Origin: Bacillota bacterium
GTDB lineage: Bacteria > Bacillota > Sulfobacillia > JAUYEG01
Length of the DNA stretch: 64,000 nt
Direction of reading: 5' to 3'
Assembly (NCBI GenBank): GCA_030691505.1
Contig: JAUYEG010000081.1
Coordinates: forward strand, 62,738 to 126,737
The notes under the pieces: model-generated
What the model was told of the DNA's origin: nothing
Seen by the model: only the letters and a program-made list of their open reading frames with translations
The model's database searches: none
Position numbers and translations under genes: made by a program
Part shown: positions 2,709-36,655 of the stretch, in pieces
How positions within the stretch are numbered: the first letter of the stretch is position 1
How the letters are laid out: each line of letters opens with the position of its first letter

Positions 2709-4199
<1,491 letters not shown>

Positions 4200-8802: not shown

Positions 8803-9228
8803 TCAGCTACCAGCGGAAACGGCGACTGGACCTTTACCTCGGCCCCCCAGCACAGCAAGCCAAGCCGGACTTACGGGCACGGCCGCGACGGCGTTGCCCA
8901 CGGTGCCGGCGACGCAGCAGGCGGCGAAGCCTGCGACCCCAAGACCCGGCTGCCCTCGGCGAATGCCCGCCCATGCGGGGACGACGCCCGCGAGCATGCC
9001 GACAAGCATGCCGACGAAGGCCACGCCAAGCAAAAAACCAACAGACCACACCTGGCTCATTGTCCGCGCGCACCGCCTTTCACGCCCGTCGTGATAGAGC
9101 GCAACCTTTCTGGCGGCGATGCATGCGTTCCTTTGCAGAGGGAATGAAACAACCAGGCAAATCGTGGTTCGGTCAGTTGGCGGGTTAATCACCCCTTCCC
9201 CTGTGATTCCCGATGCTGTCAGTTGCAC
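8803..9228 (-). pseudogene. 5-prime fragment of CPBP protease gene (duplication remnant)
   Basis: Residues TMSQVWSVGFLLGVAFVGMLVGMLAGVVPAWAGIRRGQPGLGVAGFAACCVAGTVGNAVAAVPVS are about 85% identical to the N-terminus of 562-1782. Similarity then stops abruptly near 8870, which marks the duplication breakpoint. Confidence 0.5.
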
Positions 9229-9272
9229 GCATGGAAATATGAGATGATTGCTGTAAAGGGTGTGAGGCCGAG

Positions 9273-10172
9273 GTGGGCACTGTCCCGTCCCGGGAGCTCG
9301 GGGGCGAGCGCAGCCGGTGGTTTCAGCGTGACGGCTATGCTGTCCACTATCAGGCCACCGGGGAAGGCGAGCCGGCGCTGCTGCTGATGCACGGTTTCGG
9401 CGCCAGCCTGTTCTCGTGGCACAAGGTGATGGAGCCCCTCTCGGCGTTCGGCAGGGTGATAGCGTACGACCGTCCCGGTTTCGGCATTACGGAGCGTCCG
9501 CTGCCTGGCAGTTGGGCCGACCCGACCCCGTACGGCGACGATGAAAACATATGGACCGCCGCTGCGCTCGCCGCCGAGGCGGGCGGCTCCGGCAACCTGG
9601 TCTTGGTGGGTCACTCGGCTGGCGGGCGGCTGGCCGTGCTTGCCGCTCTGCGTCATCCCGATAAGGTGGCTGCGCTCGTGCTCGTCGCCCCTGCCCTGGG
9701 CAGGCATCCCGGGTTTCCAGGCTGGGTGCGCGCGTTGGCTGCAACGCGCGCCGGCAGGCTCGTCGGTCCAAGGCTGCTCCGCTGGCTCATCGCCCGGGCC
9801 GGCAGGCTGATCGGTTTGGCCTGGCACGATTCATCGCGCCTCCGTCAGGAGGACATCGAGGGCTATCGTCTGCCGCTCCAGGCCCGAGACTGGGACCGCG
9901 GCCTGTGGGAAGTGGTGATCGCCTCGCAACCGGCCGCCTTGACGGGAGAACTGGGCCGCCTTCAGATGCCGGTCTTGTTCATCACCGGGGACGACGACCG
10001 GATAGTCCCGGCCTATGAGACGCGGGCGAACGCCGCCCGGGTGCCCAACGGCCGGATGGTCGTAATATCTGAGTGCGGGCACATTCCGCACGAGGAGCGG
10101 CCGGAGCTGTTTCTGGCTGCAGTGAGCTCGTTTCTGTCCACATTGTCTGCAGGGGGCGAAGCGGGACAATGA
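9273..10172 (+). CDS. alpha/beta-fold hydrolase (intact copy 2)
   Basis: 299 aa with HGFGASLFSWH, VGHSAGGRLA and a C-terminal ECGHIPHEERPE catalytic His region. It is the paralog of the frameshifted 1847-2708. Confidence 0.75.
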   Translation: MGTVPSRELGGERSRWFQRDGYAVHYQATGEGEPALLLMHGFGASLFSWHKVMEPLSAFGRVIAYDRPGFGITERPLPGSWADPTPYGDDENIWTAAALAAEAGGSGNLVLVGHSAGGRLAVLAALRHPDKVAALVLVAPALGRHPGFPGWVRALAATRAGRLVGPRLLRWLIARAGRLIGLAWHDSSRLRQEDIEGYRLPLQARDWDRGLWEVVIASQPAALTGELGRLQMPVLFITGDDDRIVPAYETRANAARVPNGRMVVISECGHIPHEERPELFLAAVSSFLSTLSAGGEAGQ

Positions 10173-12956: not shown

Positions 12957-14175
12957 TAAGAGGGAGCGGATACCGGACGCGGAGCTGGACGACCGGCTGA
13001 CCCGGGCGCTGGCCGCGCCTGAGGCCGACCCGACGTTCCGCGCCCACCTCCGGCGCAAGGTCATGGAGCAGCACCCGGCAGCAGGGCTTGAGCAGCCTGA
13101 GAAATGGAGGGCAAGCGATATGACCAGAGTCGAGAGGCATAGCGCGCAGAAACCGCGTAGGTCGATTTCGCTCGGGCGCGTCGCCGCGGCGGTTGCGGCG
13201 GTGGCGGTCCTAGCAGTGGTAGCCGCTAAGCTGATCATGCCGGCCCCCGGTCCGGTTGCCGAGTTCGGAACCCTGCCCGGCCTTGCGGCGGGGCTGCCCC
13301 CGGAGGGCGGGGGCGCGGGCGGACCGGGCTACGAGTTCGAATTTACGTACGGCCTTGGCGGGGCCCTGACGTCCGGGTGGCCCAAGCTTCAGGACAAGGA
13401 ACTTGCGTACAAGCTGAGGGCGGAGTTCACCGAGGCGAGAGTCGCGGCGCTGGCGACCAAACTCGGTATCACAGCACCCGTGGTACGCGAAGAATGGCAC
13501 GATGGCTATCTGCTGGCGGCCGATCCCGGCGACAACGGTCCATCGCTGCGCATGTTCCCGGGCGGGTACACGGCCTATTCGCAGCCGTATGATGCCGAGG
13601 AACTGCCGCGGAGCGCCCTTCCGAGCGACGCGCGGGCCATCGAGATCGCCCGCAATTGGTTAGTGAACAACGGTTTTGTCCCAGCCGGTACTCTGGGCGC
13701 GGCAACGGTCATAGAGGATCTTCAGAACGGAAGCCTGTACGTGAGGTTCAAACCTGCCGAGCCTGCGGACATCGTCACCATCTCGCCGTTCGGCAACGTG
13801 CAGATCACTAAGGGCGAGAAGATCGCCTACGGCTCGGCAACCTGGTTCCCGGCCGTCGGGACGTCGAAGTATCCCCTGCGTCCTGTAGCCGACGCATGGG
13901 AGCAGGTGCGGGCCGGCCTAGGGATCCTGGATTGGCACGCTATTGAGTTCCCTGGGCCGTCCGCCGACGACAACCTGATCACCGGGCAGGCAACGGTTGA
14001 CAAGGTGCGCGTGGCCTGGTACCTAACGTTTGCGAGCGACGGCACGCCGTACCTGGTCCCGGTCTACGCGTTCTCGGGCACGGTGCAGGTCGGCGGAGGG
14101 GGAGACGATGGGCCGACGACCCTGCCGTTCCAGGTATGGGCCCCGGCCGCGGCAAGCCAGCACGTGCAGCAGTAG
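12940..14175 (+). CDS. putative membrane-anchored anti-sigma factor with large extracytoplasmic domain
   Basis: It overlaps the 3-prime end of the ECF sigma gene. It has a short cytoplasmic N-terminal region, a single TM (VAAAVAAVAVLAVVAA) and a 300-aa C-terminal domain. The sigma/anti-sigma arrangement is inferred from position. Confidence 0.55.
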   Translation: MSNMADKRERIPDAELDDRLTRALAAPEADPTFRAHLRRKVMEQHPAAGLEQPEKWRASDMTRVERHSAQKPRRSISLGRVAAAVAAVAVLAVVAAKLIMPAPGPVAEFGTLPGLAAGLPPEGGGAGGPGYEFEFTYGLGGALTSGWPKLQDKELAYKLRAEFTEARVAALATKLGITAPVVREEWHDGYLLAADPGDNGPSLRMFPGGYTAYSQPYDAEELPRSALPSDARAIEIARNWLVNNGFVPAGTLGAATVIEDLQNGSLYVRFKPAEPADIVTISPFGNVQITKGEKIAYGSATWFPAVGTSKYPLRPVADAWEQVRAGLGILDWHAIEFPGPSADDNLITGQATVDKVRVAWYLTFASDGTPYLVPVYAFSGTVQVGGGGDDGPTTLPFQVWAPAAASQHVQQ

Positions 14176-14317
14176 GGACTGGATTGGCCCGGCAGACCGG
14201 GCGGGTGATCGTAAGTTGGCAAAGAGCCCTCCGCACGCGGCCACCGCCGCTCGGAGGGCTCTTCGCCTGCACGGCGAAACCGTCTTGCCGTCGAGGTCCG
14301 ATTGGAGGTGTGCGTCC

Positions 14318-15098
14318 TGTGACACCTGAGGAAGACGTCGCAAAGGGCGGGTGCGGCCCCATCAACTACGAAGCCCTGGCGGCCACCTACGCCCGTTTCC
14401 GGGAGGCGGTTCCGCGGGTGGTCGAGTACCTGGTCCGGACGCTGGACGGGATCAGCTCGCCCGCTATCCTGGAAATCGGTTGCGGAACGGCCGACCACCT
14501 GGCCGCGCTAGCGGACGTGATCGCCCCGCTGGGCGGCCGGGCTGCAGGTTTCGACCTATCGCCCGGGATGCTGAAGCAGGCCGGTGCCAAGCATCCGCAG
14601 CTCCAGCTGTTGCAGGGCGACGCGCACGGCCGCTTTCCGTATGCGGACGGGCAATTCGACCTGGCCTTTTCTGTGAACGTCATCCACTACCTTAGCGATC
14701 TGAGTACGCATTTCGGCGAGGCGAGGCGGGTGCTGCGTCCGGGCGGGCGCCTCGTGACGGTGACGGACTCGGAGGAAGACATTCGTGCGCGCACCATGAC
14801 GCACTACTTTCCGGAAACGGTCGACCGGGAGCTTGAGCGCTACCATCCGGTGGCTCGCCTGACCGCGGCCATGCGGGCGGCAGGATTTGGCGGCATCGAG
14901 GTCGCTCACACCCGCCACGCGAGCGTCTTCAGCCCGGCCGACATCGACCGCTACCGGCGGCGCGCCTTCTCTGCGCTGCGGCTCATTTCGGAGGAGGCGT
15001 ACAACAGGGGCCTCGCCCGCCTTGAGTCCGACTACGCCGCCGGCCCGCTTGAGCTTGAGCTGCTGGAGCTCTACACGTACGTGTCCGGAAGGGCGTAG
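14318..15098 (+). CDS. class I SAM-dependent methyltransferase (Methyltransf_11-like)
   Basis: SAM-binding motif I ILEIGCGTADHL, motif post-I FDLSPGML, LRPGGRLV. The ORF opens at 14136, but a GTG at 14318 gives the typical length. Confidence 0.7.
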
Positions 15099-15109
15099 GT
15101 CCCTTTTCC

Positions 15110-15520
15110 CAGGATTCTCACGTCCTTTACCGGCGGTCCTTTCGCTCTTGCGGGCAGCCCTTTTCATCAGGCGAGAATCTCGGGCGGGTAGTTCACTCCA
15201 CATGAGCATGTGCCTGTCGGTGCGCTCACGTGCTGAAAACTAGCGACCGCCGTTCTCATCCAGTGAAAACGTACTGACGGCGATACTCGCCAGACGAGAA
15301 CCATACGGCAGAGGTTCTCACGTGATGAAAACCGGTGGGGTGGATTTCCATCTGGCGAGAAGGCTAAGGCGGTCGTACTCGCCAGTTGAAAACCCCTCGG
15401 GATGGGTTCTCATCTGATGAGAACCCTGGGTACCATTTCCGCCACGTGAGAACTCGGAGATAGCTCCTCTCGCCACGTGAACACAGATCAACCAAGATTC
15501 TCGCACGGTGAAAACCTGCT
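15110..15520. repeat. array of about 9 copies of a ~21-bp imperfect palindrome (consensus about GGTTCTCAYSTGATGARAACC) in both orientations
   Basis: Copies seen directly: 15114 gattctcacgtcc; 15170 (rc) gcgagaatc; 15227 tcacgtgctgaaaac; 15252 gttctcatccagtgaaaac; 15313 ggttctcacgtgatgaaaacc; 15376 ctcgccagttgaaaacc; 15406 ggttctcatctgatgagaaccc; 15443 cacgtgagaactc; 15497 gattctcgcacggtgaaaacc. Local GC is lower than the flanks. Confidence 0.7.
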
Positions 15521-15604: not shown

Positions 15605-16417
15605 CTACGTTTTGTCTCCGGGGCTGCGCCGCTGCTGTTGCCTATCCAGCCTCCCAGTCTTGGCCGCGTAGGCAAGGCTGATCCTCGCCAGGGTCTTGTA
15701 GTAGGGTCCGTCTTCGTTCACATAGTTCAGCGCCAAGTTATCAGGCAGGAGCCTCCGAAAGGCCTCGGGGGCCAGATCCTCCGCTGACACGGTTATCAGG
15801 CTCACGCCCTGTTGCTGGCTGAGGGCTAGTTTCGCCAGATCATGGTTGCGAGTCTCCCTGAAGCCCTTGTCTTCGCCGAAGGTCGATGAGGCGGAGTAAT
15901 GCTGGGAACCGTTGAACTCGAAGGCCACTTTGGCCTGGTAGTAGAACCGGTCGTACTCGAGGGGCGGGGCGTCCTCAGTAGGTCTGAGGAAGTCAGGGCG
16001 AGCGTTGTCCACATAGGCGTCGCTCCAGACCCACATATCGAGGTGGCGTTTCATCAGGAACTCCCCCCTGTTGGGGGCGAAGCCATACTCGACCTCAAGG
16101 AGTTGGGCCATTTCAACTTCGCAGCGAATGGGAATGGTCGGGATGGGGCATATCCTGCGACCTGGTTGTTTGGACATACGCATCCAATCGGTTGCCTCAA
16201 GCCGTTCGCAAGCCTTGGCTACCGTGGCCCATGATAAGTCCAGGGCTGCGGCGATTTGTCTGATATTCTTAGGCCTGAAGAACAGACACCATAGATACAG
16301 CGAACGGTCAATGAAGCCGAGTCCCTGCTGGGCCGCCAGCTCTCGCAATACCACGCCGTGCACTCGCACTCCTTGATCTCCGTCTCCTTTCCAGGGGCGA
16401 TGGGCCCATTGTAGCAT
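15605..16417 (-). CDS. winged-HTH protein with C-terminal DUF559 / Vsr-like (PD-(D/E)xK) endonuclease-like domain
   Basis: The C-terminus FYYQAKVAFEFNGSQHY...FRETRNHDLAKLALSQQQGVSLITVSAEDL fits the DUF559 pattern (ExDGxxH ... R..L...G..V.R). The central wHTH is IRQIAAALDLSWATVAKACERL. GC is below the window average. Confidence 0.5.
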   Translation of the reverse strand: MLQWAHRPWKGDGDQGVRVHGVVLRELAAQQGLGFIDRSLYLWCLFFRPKNIRQIAAALDLSWATVAKACERLEATDWMRMSKQPGRRICPIPTIPIRCEVEMAQLLEVEYGFAPNRGEFLMKRHLDMWVWSDAYVDNARPDFLRPTEDAPPLEYDRFYYQAKVAFEFNGSQHYSASSTFGEDKGFRETRNHDLAKLALSQQQGVSLITVSAEDLAPEAFRRLLPDNLALNYVNEDGPYYKTLARISLAYAAKTGRLDRQQQRRSPGDKT

Positions 16418-16525
16418 GAATGGGAAAATCTGACATGCCAGTTTCGGGCACGAGAAGACCCCGCCGAGCTCATCTGCCCGACGGGGTCTGCGTGGTCGGT
16501 CAAGAGGATTGTTGGTTGGGGCTCC

Positions 16526-30314: not shown

Positions 30315-30851
30315 GTGGCGAGGGCTGTTGCACTCCGTCCCGTGGCTGAGGACGATTTCGACCGCTTGGTAACCTGGGAAACCGACCCCACCATCGAAAT
30401 CCAGTTTGGCAAGACCTTTTCATCCATCGGCGACTTCAGGCGCTACCGTGCAGAACTCGTGCGCGGGCGCCGCTATGCCATGGTGGTCGAGGCCGAGCAG
30501 ACCGGAATCATCGGCTATGTCGAGCTTGTCAACCTGGCCTGGCGGGCCAAGTCCGCCGAGCTCTGCGTGCTCATCGGCGAGGAGCGCTTCCGGGGGCTGG
30601 GCCACGGCACGTCCGCCCTTGACCTCTTCCTGCAGGTCGCCTTCGAGCAGCTTGCGCTGGATCGCGTCTACCTCAGGGTCGCGTGCGGCAACAAGCGCGC
30701 CCGGCGCTGCTACGAAAAATGCGGCTTCCGGGCCAGAGGCATACTGCCGGTGACGGCGCGCCAGCCGGACCGCTCGGACGACCTGCTGCTAATGGAGCTG
30801 TGGCGGTGTGATTGGGCCGCGGGCGGCCGCGTCGCGGCGGGGGAGTCTTAG
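30315..30851 (+). CDS. GNAT family N-acetyltransferase (RimJ/RimL-like)
   Basis: GNAT motifs: IGYVELVNLAWRAKSAELCVLIGEERFRGLGHGTSAL, RVYLRVACGNKRARRCYEKCGF. Confidence 0.8.
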   Translation: MARAVALRPVAEDDFDRLVTWETDPTIEIQFGKTFSSIGDFRRYRAELVRGRRYAMVVEAEQTGIIGYVELVNLAWRAKSAELCVLIGEERFRGLGHGTSALDLFLQVAFEQLALDRVYLRVACGNKRARRCYEKCGFRARGILPVTARQPDRSDDLLLMELWRCDWAAGGRVAAGES

Positions 30852-30889
30852 CGGGGTCAGGCGGGCGAGGCGCGGCGGGGCCGGGCGAG

Positions 30890-31095
30890 GCGCCGCGGGA
30901 CTGCTCGCTACAGAGCAGGTGCTGGGCCCGACCTGCTTTCTGCAGATCAGATGTGGGCCGACCTGCTTTCCACAGAGCAGCAGATGGGTTCCTGCTCGCC
31001 ACGAAGCAGATGGCTTGGTGGACCTGCTTTCCTGAGAGCAGGTCGCCGGCAGTACCTGCTTTGTAGCAAGCAGGCGCCGTGTCCGGCCTCCCACC
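30890..31095. repeat. six tandem imperfect hairpin (palindromic) repeat units, about ACCTGCTTTCnnnAGAGCAGGT, 30-35 bp period
   Basis: cctgctcgctacagagcaggtg; acctgctttctgcagatcag; acctgctttccacagagcagcag; tcctgctcgccacgaagcag; acctgctttcctgagagcaggt; acctgctttgtagcaagcaggcg. Confidence 0.7.
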
Positions 31096-31199
31096 AGCGG
31101 GCCGGCGAGCCTGCCGGCAGCGTGCTTCGTTTCCCCCGCAGTTGACACTACCCGGCCAGCTTGCTAGATTGGTTCTAATCACACAGTGCACTGGCAATG

Positions 31200-31495
31200 A
31201 CGAGGAAGAGTAGTCCCGCACGGACCTCAGAGAGGGCGGCTCACCGGCTGCGAGGCCGCCTGGGAGATTGGCGGGACGAATGTCGCCTCTGAGCTTCCGG
31301 CGCGAGGGCCCGCAGGGATACCGATCCCGGGCCGGAGAGCCGGGCGGGAGAAGCCCGTTACAGCGTCAAGTGCTTGACGGCCGGCCTGCCGGATCGGATC
31401 GGATCGGCCTGGCGGCCGGCGGCGGGAACTAAGGTGGTACCGCGGGAGCGGATGCTTTCGTCCTTTGGGGGCGAAGGCATTTTTGTTTTCGGTGC
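31200..31495 (+). promoter_or_regulatory. T-box riboswitch leader of valS, with terminator
   Basis: Stem I GA-motif region gacgaggaagagtag at about 31197. Conserved T-box sequence AACTAAGGTGGTACCGCGGGAG at 31427-31448. Terminator hairpin ATGCTTTCGTCC/GGGGCGAAGGCAT followed by TTTTGTTTT at 31452-31489, just upstream of valS. Confidence 0.65.
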
Positions 31496-31515: not shown

Positions 31516-34290
31516 ATGCCCATGAAGACGACATCCGGGCTCGCCGGGCCCGCAGTGCCCACGGCGCCCGCCGCGCCCACGACACCCGCCACGCCCGCCG
31601 GCGATCAGCCGCAGGGCCGGCGGGATCTGCCGACAGTCTACGACCCAGCGTCCGTGGAGGTTCGCCGTTACGAGGAGTGGGTGGAGGCGGGGTATTTCCG
31701 CGCCGAAATCGTGCCGGGCCAGGAGCCCTTCACGATCGTCATTCCGCCGCCCAATATCACCGGCGCCCTGCACATCGGCCACGCCCTGAACAACTCGCTT
31801 CAGGATGTGCTGATACGCTGGCGGCGGATGGCTGGCCAGCCGGCGCTGTGGCTTCCCGGCACCGACCATGCCAGCATCGCCACGCACGCGCGCATTGAGA
31901 AAAACCTGGCCGAGGAAGGGACCAGCCGCTTCGAAATAGGCCGGGAGGAGTTTCTGCGCCGCGCCTGGGCCTGGTACGACAAGTACGGCAACACCATCCT
32001 CAACCAGCTCCGCCGGCTCGGCTGTTCCTGCGACTGGTCGCGCCAGCGCTTCACGCTGGACGAGGGCTTGTCACGGGCGGTGCAGGACCATTTCATCACT
32101 CTCTATGAGCAAGGGCTCATCTACCGCGGCGACTACATCGTCAACTGGTGTCCGGGCTGCCGCACGGTGGTGTCGGACATCGAGGTCGTCCACACCGACG
32201 AGGACAGCCACCTGTGGCATGTGGCTTACCCCTTGGCCGACGGTTCCGGCGAAATCGTGGTCGCCACCACGCGGCCCGAAACGATGTTGGGCGATACCGC
32301 CGTAGCGGTGCATCCCGATGACGAGCGGTACCGCGATTTGGTCGGCAAGGAAGCCGTACTGCCGGTGGTCGGCAGGATGCTGCCGATCATCGCTGACACG
32401 TACGTGGACCCGGCGTTCGGGAGCGGAGCGGTGAAAGTGACTCCGGCTCACGATCCCAACGACTACGAGATCGGGCGGCGTCACCGGCTGCAGCAGGTCA
32501 CGGTCATCGGCGAGGACATGAACATGACGCCCCAGGCCGGCAAGTACGCCGGCATGGACCGCTACGAGTGCCGGTCGCTGCTTGTAGAGGAACTGGAGAG
32601 CCTCGGCGCGCTGCGTTCGGTCGAGCCCTACCGGCACTCCGTGGGGCACTGCGACCGCTGCGACACGGTGATCGAGCCGCTGATTTCCCGCCAGTGGTTT
32701 GTTAAGATGAAACCCCTCGCGGGTCCGGCGATCGCCGTCGTCCGGCGCGGACGTGTGCGTATCCTGCCCGAGCGGTTCGAGAAGATCTACCTCAACTGGA
32801 TGGAGAACATCCGCGACTGGTGCATCAGCCGCCAGCTCTGGTGGGGCCACCGGATTCCGGCCTGGTATTGCCGGCAATGCGGCGAGGTGATCGTCGCCCG
32901 GGAGGAGCCGGCGTCCTGCGCCGCCTGCGGCGGCCTGCTGGAGCAGGACCAGGACGTGCTGGACACCTGGTTTTCCTCGGCGCTTTGGCCGTTCAGCACC
33001 CTCGGCTGGCCAGACGACACGCCCGACCTGCGCTACTTCTTCCCGACGACGGTGCTGATCACGGCCTACGAGATCATCTTCTTCTGGGTGGCGAGGATGA
33101 TATTCAGCTCGCTGCACCTGACCGGCGACCGCCCGTTCCGCGATGTGCTGATCCACGGGCTCGTCCGCGACGGCGAAGGGCGCAAGATGTCCAAGTCGCT
33201 GGACAACGGCGTGGACCCCATCGAGGTGATCGAGAAACACGGCGCCGATGCGCTGCGTTTCGGCCTGCTGACGGGGACGTCGCTCGGCGGCGATGTGCGG
33301 TTTTCCTGGGACAAGTTCGAGTCAGCGCGCAACTTCGTAAACAAGCTGTGGAACGCGGCCAGGTTTGTCCTCCTCAACCTTGACGGGCCCGGGCAGGACG
33401 CACCTGCCGTCGCCGCCGGCGGGGGCCGGGAAGGGCTCCCTGCCGCGGATCTGGAGCTGGCCGACCGCTGGATCCTCTCGCGCCTGGCCCGGCTTACGGC
33501 ACAGGTCAGCTCGATGCTGGAGCGCTACGATGTCGGCGAGGCGGCGAAGGCCATGTACGATTTCGCCTGGGGGGAGTTCTGCGACTGGTACATCGAGCTC
33601 GCCAAGATCCGCCTGTACGGCGATGATCCGGCGCGCCGCGACGCGGCCCAGGCAGTTCTCGTCTACGTGCTGGAACGGCTGTTGCGCCTGCTTCATCCGG
33701 TGATGCCGTTCGTGACGGAGGAAATCTGGCAGGCCCTGCCGCACGACGGCCCGAGCATTGTCGTCGCGCCGTGGCCCGAGACCCTTCCTCACCTGGAGAA
33801 CGACCGGGCCGAAGCGGAAATGGGCCGCGTCATGGATACCATCCGGGCCGTCCGGAACATCCGCGCGGAGATGAACGTCCCGGCCGGAAAGCAGGCCGAT
33901 GTTACCTTGCAGGCCGCCGAGCCCCGCGTGCGCGAGTTGCTTTCCGCGGCGTCACCGTATATCCGCGGCCTGGCGTCCGTCGGCGGGCTGCAGGTCGAAC
34001 CAACCGGCGGCACCCGGCCCAAGCAGGCGGGCGCGGCGATCCTCGCGGGGATCGAGGTCTACATGCCGCTGCGCGGCCTCATCGACTTCGAAAGGGAGGC
34101 GGGGCGCATCCGCCGGGCGCTGGGAGAAGCGGAGTTGGAGCTGGCCCGGGCCCGCGAACGCCTGGCAAATGAGAGCTTTCTGCGGCGCGCTCCGGCCGAC
34201 GTGGTCGCCAGGGAACGCGAGAAGGAAGCCCAATACGCTGAGCAGGCCGAAAAGCTGCGCCAGCGGCTGACGTTGCTTGAGGAAGCATAG
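31516..34290 (+). CDS. valS: valine--tRNA ligase
   Basis: HIGH motif (PPPNITGALHIGHAL), KMSKS (GRKMSKSLDNGVDP), CP1 editing domain, and C-terminal coiled coil. About a 35-aa Pro/Ala/Thr-rich N-terminal extension. Start ATG 31516 after GAGGAG. Confidence 0.95.
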   Translation: MPMKTTSGLAGPAVPTAPAAPTTPATPAGDQPQGRRDLPTVYDPASVEVRRYEEWVEAGYFRAEIVPGQEPFTIVIPPPNITGALHIGHALNNSLQDVLIRWRRMAGQPALWLPGTDHASIATHARIEKNLAEEGTSRFEIGREEFLRRAWAWYDKYGNTILNQLRRLGCSCDWSRQRFTLDEGLSRAVQDHFITLYEQGLIYRGDYIVNWCPGCRTVVSDIEVVHTDEDSHLWHVAYPLADGSGEIVVATTRPETMLGDTAVAVHPDDERYRDLVGKEAVLPVVGRMLPIIADTYVDPAFGSGAVKVTPAHDPNDYEIGRRHRLQQVTVIGEDMNMTPQAGKYAGMDRYECRSLLVEELESLGALRSVEPYRHSVGHCDRCDTVIEPLISRQWFVKMKPLAGPAIAVVRRGRVRILPERFEKIYLNWMENIRDWCISRQLWWGHRIPAWYCRQCGEVIVAREEPASCAACGGLLEQDQDVLDTWFSSALWPFSTLGWPDDTPDLRYFFPTTVLITAYEIIFFWVARMIFSSLHLTGDRPFRDVLIHGLVRDGEGRKMSKSLDNGVDPIEVIEKHGADALRFGLLTGTSLGGDVRFSWDKFESARNFVNKLWNAARFVLLNLDGPGQDAPAVAAGGGREGLPAADLELADRWILSRLARLTAQVSSMLERYDVGEAAKAMYDFAWGEFCDWYIELAKIRLYGDDPARRDAAQAVLVYVLERLLRLLHPVMPFVTEEIWQALPHDGPSIVVAPWPETLPHLENDRAEAEMGRVMDTIRAVRNIRAEMNVPAGKQADVTLQAAEPRVRELLSAASPYIRGLASVGGLQVEPTGGTRPKQAGAAILAGIEVYMPLRGLIDFEREAGRIRRALGEAELELARARERLANESFLRRAPADVVAREREKEAQYAEQAEKLRQRLTLLEEA

Positions 34291-35730: not shown

Positions 35731-36655
35731 CGTGCATCGATCCGGGCGCAAGCGGGAGCCGGCCCGCCGCTCGCTGGGCGTGGTCATGTTCCTTGTCGCA
35801 CTGGGCCTCGCCGGGTTGGTGGTCGGGGCATTCTTCGGCAACTACATCATCAGGTCTCTGATCGAGGCTACCAGTCCTCCCGGCGGCACGTCTTCCGGCG
35901 GCGGGACGACGCCGGGCGGGACTACTCCCGGTGGGACAACGCCCGGGGGTGGGACCACTCCAGGCGGGACGACGCCCGGGGTGACGCCGCCGCCTTCATC
36001 AGTGCAGGTGTTGCTGCAGCCGTACACTTTCTTCGCGGTTCAGGTCGGGGCGTTCAGCGAGGCGAGCATGGCCCAGCAGGTGGCGCGTCAGGCCTCGGAG
36101 CTGGGCCTTCCCAGCCACGTTGGGGAGCCTGAGCCTGACGGGAGCGACAGGCTCTGGCGCGTGCGCTGCGCGATTTTGCCGTCGCGAGAAGGAGCGGAAG
36201 CGGTGCTCAAGATCGCTCGTACCGCAGGCTACACGGACGCGTTTCTGGCCCAGTTCCAGACCCGCGCGATGGACCTGACCGTCCAGGCGTCTTCGGCGCA
36301 ATACCTCACTGGTTTCCGCGATGCGCTGCAGGGCATGTCCGAACTGATGCGCAATGAGGCCCAGGCCTGGGACGCCCATGCGCGCGGAGGGCTCGACTCG
36401 CGGGTTCTTGGCGGGTACCTGACCGCGGTCGGCGCCTCCGCGGCAAAGGTTCGCCAGGCGCTTACCGGCTTGACGCCGCCGACCGATCTTCGCGAGCGGC
36501 ACGACGTGTTGACCGGTCTGGTCAACATGGCCGACGCGTCCGCCGTTGAGTTCGCCAACGCCGCGCAGGGAACCCAAGCCCAATACGCCCGCGCGATGAG
36601 TGAATACATGAGGTTTGTTGCAGCCTTCAGCCGCGTTTGCGCCAGCTGGCGATAA
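35731..36655 (+). CDS. SPOR-domain membrane protein (SpoIIB-like by position) with (T-T-P-G-G)n linker
   Basis: TM VVMFLVALGLAGLVVGAFF, a Thr/Pro/Gly-rich repeat, then a SPOR domain FFAVQVGAFSEASMAQQVARQASELGLPSHV...WRVRCAILPSREGAEAVLKIARTAGYTDAFL. It follows folC, as spoIIB does in Bacillus. Confidence 0.55.

Follow-up and report, generated by a model that had tools for sequence, protein, structure and literature searches.

The window analysed here is a stretch of 64 kb with a G+C content of 65%, which carries a block of housekeeping genes (tig-clpP-clpX-lonB-lonA ... valS-folC-SPOR-rnf-apbE ... radC-mreBC-pbp2-rodA). Within this block we focused on the junction between a GNAT acetyltransferase gene, preceded by lonA and a Ddl-like ATP-grasp gene, and valS, which is followed by folC. 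The features of the junction are the following:

30315..30851, + strand: GNAT (RimJ/RimL-type) acetyltransferase gene (Pfam Acetyltransf_3, 1.2e-20), syntenic in relatives
30852..31125, no strand: lineage-specific segment of about 270 bp, from the GNAT stop to about 17 bp upstream of the -35 box, absent in the closest relatives
30862..30899, + strand: G-rich direct repeat (20 bp, 1.9 copies) CGGGCGAGGCGCSGCGGGGC, left end of the inserted segment (TRF score 69, repeat finder)
30901..30918, + strand: unit 1, CTGCTCGCTACAGAGCAG, 6-bp stem, RNA hairpin of -11.1 kcal/mol
30933..30950, + strand: unit 2, CTGCTTTCTGCAGATCAG, one core mismatch, weak + strand hairpin of -6.7 kcal/mol
30963..30980, + strand: unit 3, CTGCTTTCCACAGAGCAG, weak hairpin of -7.1 kcal/mol
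30992..31009, + strand: unit 4, CTGCTCGCCACGAAGCAG, 5-bp core only, hairpin z = -0.2, no better than shuffled
31021..31044, + strand: unit 5, GACCTGCTTTCCTGAGAGCAGGTC, stem of 10 bp, the best of the six palindromes, -15.7 kcal/mol, z = -4.0
31054..31074, + strand: unit 6, ACCTGCTTTGTAGCAAGCAGG, 7-bp stem, -10.9 kcal/mol
31101..31118, + strand: short GC hairpin GCCGGC-GAGCCT-GCCGGC, read from the sequence, right end of the inserted segment
31142..31170, + strand: valS promoter, sigma-70-like (TTGACA, 17-bp spacer, TAGATT, extended -10 TG), from the promoter scan
31188..31492, + strand: valS T-box leader, with GUC specifier at 31282-31284 and terminator hairpin at 31450-31482 plus T-tract
31516..34290, + strand: valS (valine-tRNA ligase), 924 aa, start as in the public record (P0001, 100% identity)

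The six units, which we call array A, lie where the first-pass annotation had placed them, between the GNAT gene (stop codon at 30851, which also bounds the inserted segment on the left) and the valS promoter (31142-31170) and T-box (31188-31468). The array is extragenic, it starts 50 bp 3' of the GNAT stop, and it is wholly upstream of the promoter and outside the T-box leader. The terminator and promoter scans gave no canonical terminator and no further promoter from the GNAT gene to the valS promoter. Because there is no canonical terminator in between, the array would probably be transcribed as the 3' tail of the GNAT message. We rejected the array itself as an intrinsic terminator: no unit is followed by a T run and the scan finds only the terminator of the T-box (31450-31482). 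The GC hairpin at 31101..31118 does not appear in the scan output and is not a canonical terminator, since it has no adjacent T-tract.

Regarding the T-box, it matches RF00230 over its full length (31188-31468) with 66.8 bits and an E value of 3.2e-14, a score under the gathering score of 93. Both GGTGGTACCGCG and the terminator with its T-tract are present, and the specifier GUC, followed by G, fits valine. None of the loci of seven relatives reaches the gathering score either, despite the plainly conserved T-box sequence, terminator and GUC specifier of their valS leaders. Therefore, default Rfam annotation would miss these high-GC T-boxes.

Array A consists of six units with the core CTGCT-N8-AGCAG between 30901 and 31073, exact in five units and with one mismatch in the other. 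The units start at 30901, 30933, 30963, 30992, 31024 and 31056; the spacings are thus 32, 30, 29, 32 and 32 bp, with a mean period of 31.0 bp, and the 30-35 bp reported before has to be corrected to 29-32 bp. When one mismatch is allowed, the core pattern has 15 matches in the 64-kb window vs 2.5 expected, a number that none of 100 shuffles reached, and six of the 15 are packed into the 173 bp of the array. Tandem Repeats Finder and a repeat finder recover the periodicity too. The six tandem palindromic units first noticed by eye of the model annotator are therefore present. Array A is a genuine feature, well supported statistically, and its general kind is a known one. Furthermore, its sequence is identical, copy number included, in the independent short-read Logan assemblies L001 and L002, therefore it is no assembly artefact.

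All six units have the same orientation, with the left arm CTGCTTT and the right arm AGAGCAG, and they are 50-75% identical to one another, with indels. The unit lengths (29-32 bp) are not multiples of 3, therefore the array has no coding periodicity and we rejected its reading as a small ORF. A super-repeat of three units (91 bp), an idea that came from a family of the repeat finder and from the 94-bp period of a relative (L004, below), was dropped because the identities of the pairs u1-u4, u2-u5 and u3-u6 are no higher than those of other pairs. An origin of the unit from a 3' coding segment of the GNAT gene (30776-30800, 81% over 16 nt) was put down to chance, as the unit profile does not recover that segment.

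The valS junction in related genomes

Relatives with a ValS 64-82% identical keep the order Lon, Ddl-like, GNAT, valS, folC. In the closest one by GNAT (L074, GNAT 85% identical), some 16 bp separate the GNAT stop from the valS -35 box; in L075 and L076 (GNAT 78%) it is about 30 bp past the stop or overlaps it; and in the more distant L009 and L005 the valS promoter adjoins the upstream gene. All five have the -35 box 0-30 bp after the upstream stop and the same promoter and GUC T-box, without any array. Actually, the valS promoter is kept in all the relatives, array or no array. In a four-way alignment of the window with L074, L075 and L076, the relatives have a single clean gap of about 270 bp, from 30852 to about 31125, with the promoter and the T-box aligned to its right. 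We regard array A as lineage-specific because in the closest relatives the promoter abuts the GNAT gene without an array, and the alignment shows that the approximately 270 bp that hold it are a recent lineage-specific insertion or in-situ expansion.

This comparison bears on one of the three roles that the first-pass annotation had offered, a multi-site operator. As a conserved valS control it was rejected: L074, L075, L076, L009 and L005 keep the promoter and the GUC T-box and lack the array. Judging from these loci, array A is no part of conserved valS control, because promoter and T-box are intact, and adjacent to the GNAT gene, in the relatives without it. The practical value of our preferred reading, if true, would be mainly negative: array A should not be annotated as an operator or as a part of the valS T-box regulon.

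An insertion of the MITE type seems unlikely, given that there are no convincing terminal inverted repeats and no target-site duplication is visible at the segment boundaries defined by the alignment. A pair of 16-nt segments, 81% complementary (30879-30894 and 31073-31088), does bracket the units, and it is within the background of 24 inverted pairs in 600 bp at this GC content.

Other repeats occupy the same slot in other genomes. In L004 (ValS 82% identical), positions 9256-9530 between GNAT and valS hold a hairpin-rich tandem repeat of 94 bp in 2.2 copies, which has no other copy in 22.6 kb. We observed that it is built of elements of about 20 bp (GGTAC…GAGCAYAGCC), in mixed orientation and roughly every 31 bp. 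L007 and L008 have upstream of valS a 117-bp repeat in about 5 copies, 83-91% identical among themselves. The repeat of L007 (ValS 65% identical) is dispersed and mosaic (8912-9496, 14140-14830 and 3845-3870): its core is found inverted, as about six 116-bp units, downstream of folC, so that the valS-folC operon is bracketed; one more copy is in the lonB-lonA spacer; and a second element of about 61 bp (…CCAGCCGCGCCAATGAGGCAAG…) is beside the repeat at two loci (9515-9580 and 14870-15110). All the copies in L007 are 3' of genes. Thus, this is clearly a dispersed mosaic family, BIME-like, in an uncultivated Bacillota lineage.

In their valS leaders, L004 and L075 have derived sequence in common, for instance CCTGGAAGCATTGCGGGGTGAA, and there is an array in L004 and none in L075. 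The presence of an array is likewise split in a closer pair, the window (with) and L074 (without). Since the members of these pairs are related, independent gain is the parsimonious reading. The unrelated repeats of L004 (94 bp) and L007/L008 (117 bp) in the same slot suggest that the junction between the gene end and the valS promoter may be a permissive or preferred site for such repeats in the clade. Three unrelated arrays at one junction in related genomes would also mean a fast turnover of intergenic hairpin repeats in uncultivated high-GC Bacillota.

The array is dispensable in relatives, as would be expected of a neutral minisatellite, that is, a hairpin-containing segment of about 31 bp duplicated by replication slippage, now decaying, functionless and recognised by nothing. 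The identity of only 50-75% among units, their indels and the variable spacing of 29-32 bp are also in favour of this explanation. Nevertheless, it does not account for the arrays in the same slot of three lineages and, with the further points given below, we consider it unlikely.

Further changes were seen near the junction. L076 has an insertion of about 90 bp (830-930) between the valS -10 box and stem I of the T-box, where L074 has about 14 extra bases, therefore the first bases of the leader are also a variable spot. In L005 (9500-9610), the gene upstream of valS (219 aa) is the GNAT orthologue according to the aligned sequence, and its C-terminal tail is repetitive (Asp-Pro-Asp-His/Gln-Asn-Pro-Asp), encoded by a 12-bp tandem repeat that extends up to the valS -35 box. 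This is another sign of repeat expansion tolerated at the junction.

Copies of the unit and a second array in the window

A profile of the six units recovered only those six in the 64-kb window (the next best match had E = 2) and none in about 7 kb of the same organism beyond it (L078). Thus, over the approximately 71 kb searched in all there is no further unit, and on this scale the motif is not a ubiquitous genome-wide REP. The exact 19-base pattern common to units 3 and 5 gave 19 single matches in 185,579 species genomes, 45 in the JGI metagenomes and 1 in IMG/VR, all of them in unrelated taxa and without an array; these collections evidently lack the source genome. Neither phage nor plasmid collections gave a blastn match to array A, and with one single chance match in viral contigs we discarded an origin from a phage or plasmid. 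Scans by hairpin density and by 6-mer clusters were too noisy in DNA of 65% GC to detect arrays of this class, and we found no description of arrays of palindromes with a period of about 31 bp in the literature.

Regarding associated genes, a Pfam search covered about 45 of the 57 crudely called ORFs of the window, together with the Pfam list of the last 11 kb or so. Neither set contained a RAYT, transposase or Lrp/AsnC gene, and no cas domains were found in the window ORFs scanned.

The window has a second array, with which the first-pass annotation had considered array A to be unrelated:

15115..15517, no strand: array B, imperfect palindrome of 20 bp, GKTYTCR-N6-YGARAAC, in 11-13 units, one every 29-31 bp (mean 30.6)

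It is flanked by a methyltransferase gene and a convergent orphan gene, with no promoter there to regulate, and its unit has no other copy in about 71 kb. The claim holds for the sequence, since the alignment of the two arrays scores within the shuffled range, but not for the architecture, which is alike: palindromes of about 20 bp every 31 bp or so. A second array with the same unit geometry is not explained by a neutral minisatellite either. Homology among arrays A, B and those of L004 and L007 was dropped, because all their mutual local alignments are within the shuffled range and blastn-short gave no cross-matches.

The orphan gene that directly adjoins array B (15608-16420, - strand, 271 aa) has a lower GC3. 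Its N-terminus is weakly winged-helix-like (ArsR/MarR/GntR matches with E values of 0.3-0.5 and 0.008) and its C-terminus resembles HNH/homing endonucleases (phrog_559, 6.5e-9, and weak tblastn matches to phage homing nucleases). The gene could be selfish and associated with array B. The DNA at hand contains no paralogue of it, therefore it provides no candidate binder for array A.

Folding, covariation and core conservation

The 221-nt region of array A folds much better than shuffled sequences: none of 200 shuffles equals it, with z = -6.0 for the + strand and z = -4.6 for the - strand. The structure potential supposed by the first-pass annotation is therefore real, although strong folding on both strands is what any array of mutually complementary palindromes would give. 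Unit by unit, the stem-loop of 8-10 bp that had been proposed for each of them stands for unit 5, the only one with a clean 10-bp stem, but not for units 1 and 6, with 6-7 contiguous pairs and about -11 kcal/mol, nor for units 2-4, which are weak (about -7 kcal/mol, z from -0.2 to -2.6 in per-unit folding). Thus, half of the hairpins do not exceed, or hardly exceed, the shuffled level, and the summed per-unit energies favour neither strand.

Across the six units, 75% of the cells are paired, with no gain over 3' halves shuffled among units. The hairpins of array A gain no support from covariation, whose score over six units is under the shuffled mean, and array B is likewise without compensatory covariation. 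One inner stem pair of array A does show three standard pair types (C-G, U-A and U-G). The loops have no conserved motif such as GGA. Rfam gave only chance-level microRNA matches on array A (E 0.2-0.8) and nothing at gathering score in the window or in seven relatives. Since pairing and covariation are no better than shuffled, the palindrome is a property inherited from the ancestral unit of array A and is not maintained by compensatory change. Unit 5 is probably the closest to that ancestral unit.

These results weigh on the RNA-level element of the first-pass annotation. In such a case, array A would be a functional RNA made from the GNAT promoter: a multi-hairpin 3' UTR stabiliser, a protein sponge or a repeat RNA like the type III antitoxins. 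The folding of the + strand (z = -6.0), the start of the array 50 nt past the GNAT stop with no terminator between, and the inner pair with C-G, U-A and U-G would agree with it. However, the - strand folds almost equally (z = -4.6), as for any palindrome array, the summed energies give the + strand no advantage, covariation scores lower than the mean of the shuffles and the loops lack a conserved motif such as GGA. Furthermore, the next gene is valS and not a toxin gene, and there is no Rfam match. The RNA-level proposal thus gets no support from covariation, and three of its six hairpins hardly differ from shuffled sequence; a functional RNA seems to us highly improbable.

Nevertheless, conservation among the units is not uniform. 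In both arrays it is concentrated in two mirror blocks of 5 bp, 7-8 bp apart (CTGCT and AGCAG in array A). The mean pairwise identity in array A is 0.97 in these cores vs 0.42 elsewhere, which none of 100000 random sets of 10 columns matched; the units were picked by their cores and the apparent core conservation is inflated to some degree. In array B the values are 0.77 vs 0.36, and 2 of 100000 random sets do as well. Nine of the 10 core columns of array A are invariant, against none of the remaining 22. Such a pattern is not what uniform neutral decay would give, and this is the third point against the neutral minisatellite, in whose favour are the three degraded hairpins with broken pairs left uncompensated. 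Weak hairpins with perfectly conserved cores resemble sequence-specific recognition sites at least as much as structural barriers.

Regarding the period, sites about 31 bp apart keep their helical phase only with a repeat of about 10.2 bp per turn. At this value the phase resultant is 0.85 for array A and 0.96 for array B, whereas at the canonical 10.5 bp per turn it is weak in A (0.63) and lost in B (0.06).

The cores and the phase are the basis of a further explanation, by which array A would be a phased protein-binding platform. Each palindrome of 18-22 bp would be the operator of a dimeric protein, for example a winged-helix protein, with 5-N8-5 half-sites, and the six sites, about three turns apart and 80-235 bp upstream of the -35 box, could bear a cooperative, wrapped or filamentous complex that would serve as activator, repressor or insulator of the valS promoter or stop read-through from the GNAT gene. 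The identity of CTGCT/AGCAG (0.97 vs 0.42, 0 of 100000 random sets), the like pattern of array B (0.77 vs 0.36), the lack of compensatory covariation and the cores kept even where the hairpins are at the shuffled level are in its favour. In addition, periods of 30.6-31.0 bp are in phase at about 10.2 bp per turn (0.85 in A, 0.96 in B) and the position of array A upstream of a promoter is compatible.

On the other hand, at the canonical 10.5 bp per turn the sites of A are weakly in phase (0.63) and those of B no longer so (0.06), and the definition of the units by their cores inflates the core conservation to some degree. The nearest relatives have the same promoter and T-box without the array, so that the regulation would be a recent add-on, and their arrays in the same slot differ in period (94 and 117 bp) and sequence. 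Array B, between convergent gene ends, has no promoter to regulate. Finally, no candidate regulator adjoins array A and there is no Lrp/AsnC among the window ORFs scanned. We therefore see the phased platform as a doubtful explanation. It is the selectively conserved mirror cores that would keep a lineage-specific protein-binding array in consideration, at a similarly low probability.

Relation to known repeats and possible role

We compared array A with five kinds of known elements.

i) REP/BIME elements of enterobacteria and pseudomonads. These G+C-rich palindromes lie outside genes, alone or in mosaic clusters, with a bias to the 3' ends of genes and often where the neighbours are convergent or co-directional (PMC3184786). 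Array A resembles them in its short, G+C-rich, imperfect palindromes, extragenic and clustered after the 3' end of a gene, in a species-specific sequence that is dispensable in relatives (PMC3184786), and in that a dispersed mosaic family occupies the same slot in the relative L007. Its palindromes (18-22 bp, from -6.7 to -15.7 kcal/mol) agree with the 20-40 nt or so with a stem-loop of this kind, and so does the location, 50 bp past the GNAT stop for array A and between convergent genes for array B. However, array A is not dispersed within about 71 kb of genome, its units are all direct whereas the REPs of BIMEs alternate and have defined linker motifs, there is no RAYT (Y1 transposase) in the window ORFs scanned, and the unit, with its palindrome of 18-22 bp and period of 31 bp, is shorter than the classical REP of 35-40 nt. 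Thus, array A resembles the REP kind and is not a proven member, as both dispersal (in about 71 kb) and alternating orientation fail.

ii) Mycobacterial MIRUs (VNTR minisatellites). They are also tandem, head-to-tail repeats of tens of bp in intergenic spacers of housekeeping operons, variable among lineages and without an essential role. However, MIRUs have 46-100 bp, form dispersed families and vary in copy number within a species, whereas array A has the same copy number in two assemblies and each of its units is itself a palindrome.

iii) Binding arrays such as the Lrp sites of ilvIH and pap or sopC. Lrp sites are AT-rich 15-mers spaced by about three helical turns; sopC, a plasmid centromere with 12 repeats of 43 bp and an inverted repeat in each, belongs to a plasmid partition operon. 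The likeness is in several dyad-symmetric sites upstream of a promoter, with a spacing near integral helical turns, conserved half-sites and free spacers. PadR-type operators have the layout 4-N8-4. Array A differs in that no candidate regulator adjoins it and it is not conserved with the valS promoter.

iv) CRISPR. Array A is also a cluster of short palindromic repeats, regularly spaced. CRISPR repeats are near-identical, of 23-55 nt, with unique spacers of similar length and usually cas genes. This was rejected, because the repeats of array A are degenerate (50-75% identity), its spacers are short (8-14 bp) and related between units, and there are no cas domains in the ORFs scanned.

v) Type III toxin-antitoxin loci. 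In these, tandem repeats of about 35 nt are followed by a terminator and then a ToxN/AbiQ-type toxin gene on the same strand. A ToxI-like antitoxin RNA was rejected, given that valS, under its own promoter and T-box, is the gene that follows.

Therefore, among the roles offered by the first-pass annotation, the REP-like one fits best: the array is extragenic and absent in the nearest relatives, and other repeats are found in the same slot. The reading that we prefer, with middling confidence, is that array A belongs with the extragenic palindromic repeats of the REP/BIME or minisatellite kind, is specific to this lineage, and was amplified in place and has partly decayed. A unit of about 31 bp with a palindrome of 20-22 bp would have become established just after the GNAT stop, and unit 5 (GACCTGCTTTCC-TG-AGAGCAGGTC) would be the best surviving copy of that palindrome. 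Amplification in place would then have given six direct copies, which would have diverged to 50-75% identity. Any effect of the array would be accessory, consisting of hairpins at the 3' end of an mRNA and a spacing of 270 bp before the valS promoter: the hairpins of units 1, 5 and 6, which are the stronger ones, might delay 3' exonucleases or the passage of RNA polymerase and, at the DNA level, the valS promoter would be shifted about 270 bp from the end of the GNAT gene.

Nevertheless, several facts are against the REP-like reading, namely that there are no dispersed copies in about 71 kb, the orientation is direct, no RAYT is found in the ORFs scanned and the cores are selectively conserved. 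Actually, with conserved cores and several hairpins too weak as barriers, sequence-specific recognition fits as well as, or better than, a passive hairpin role. Array A is thus mildly unusual in two properties, the conserved mirror cores and the geometry of about 31 bp that it has in common with a second array. Together with the repeated occupation of the junction, they leave a small chance of a phased protein-binding or insulating structure.

In its boldest form, which we hold to be very improbable, arrays A and B would belong to an undescribed class of nucleoprotein platforms with 6-13 dyad-symmetric sites, each array with its own dimeric protein, acting as a roadblock or insulator at gene ends and repeatedly selected at the GNAT-valS junction. 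The two conserved 5-bp half-sites, 7-8 bp apart, and the repeat of about 31 bp would then correspond to three turns of wrapped DNA at about 10.2 bp per turn, and the bound protein would polymerise or wrap the DNA.

Finally, another repeat reported by TRF in the window (35900-35992, periods 15 and 33), downstream of folC, is coding and corresponds to GGTTP-type repeats in the linker of the SPOR-domain protein.
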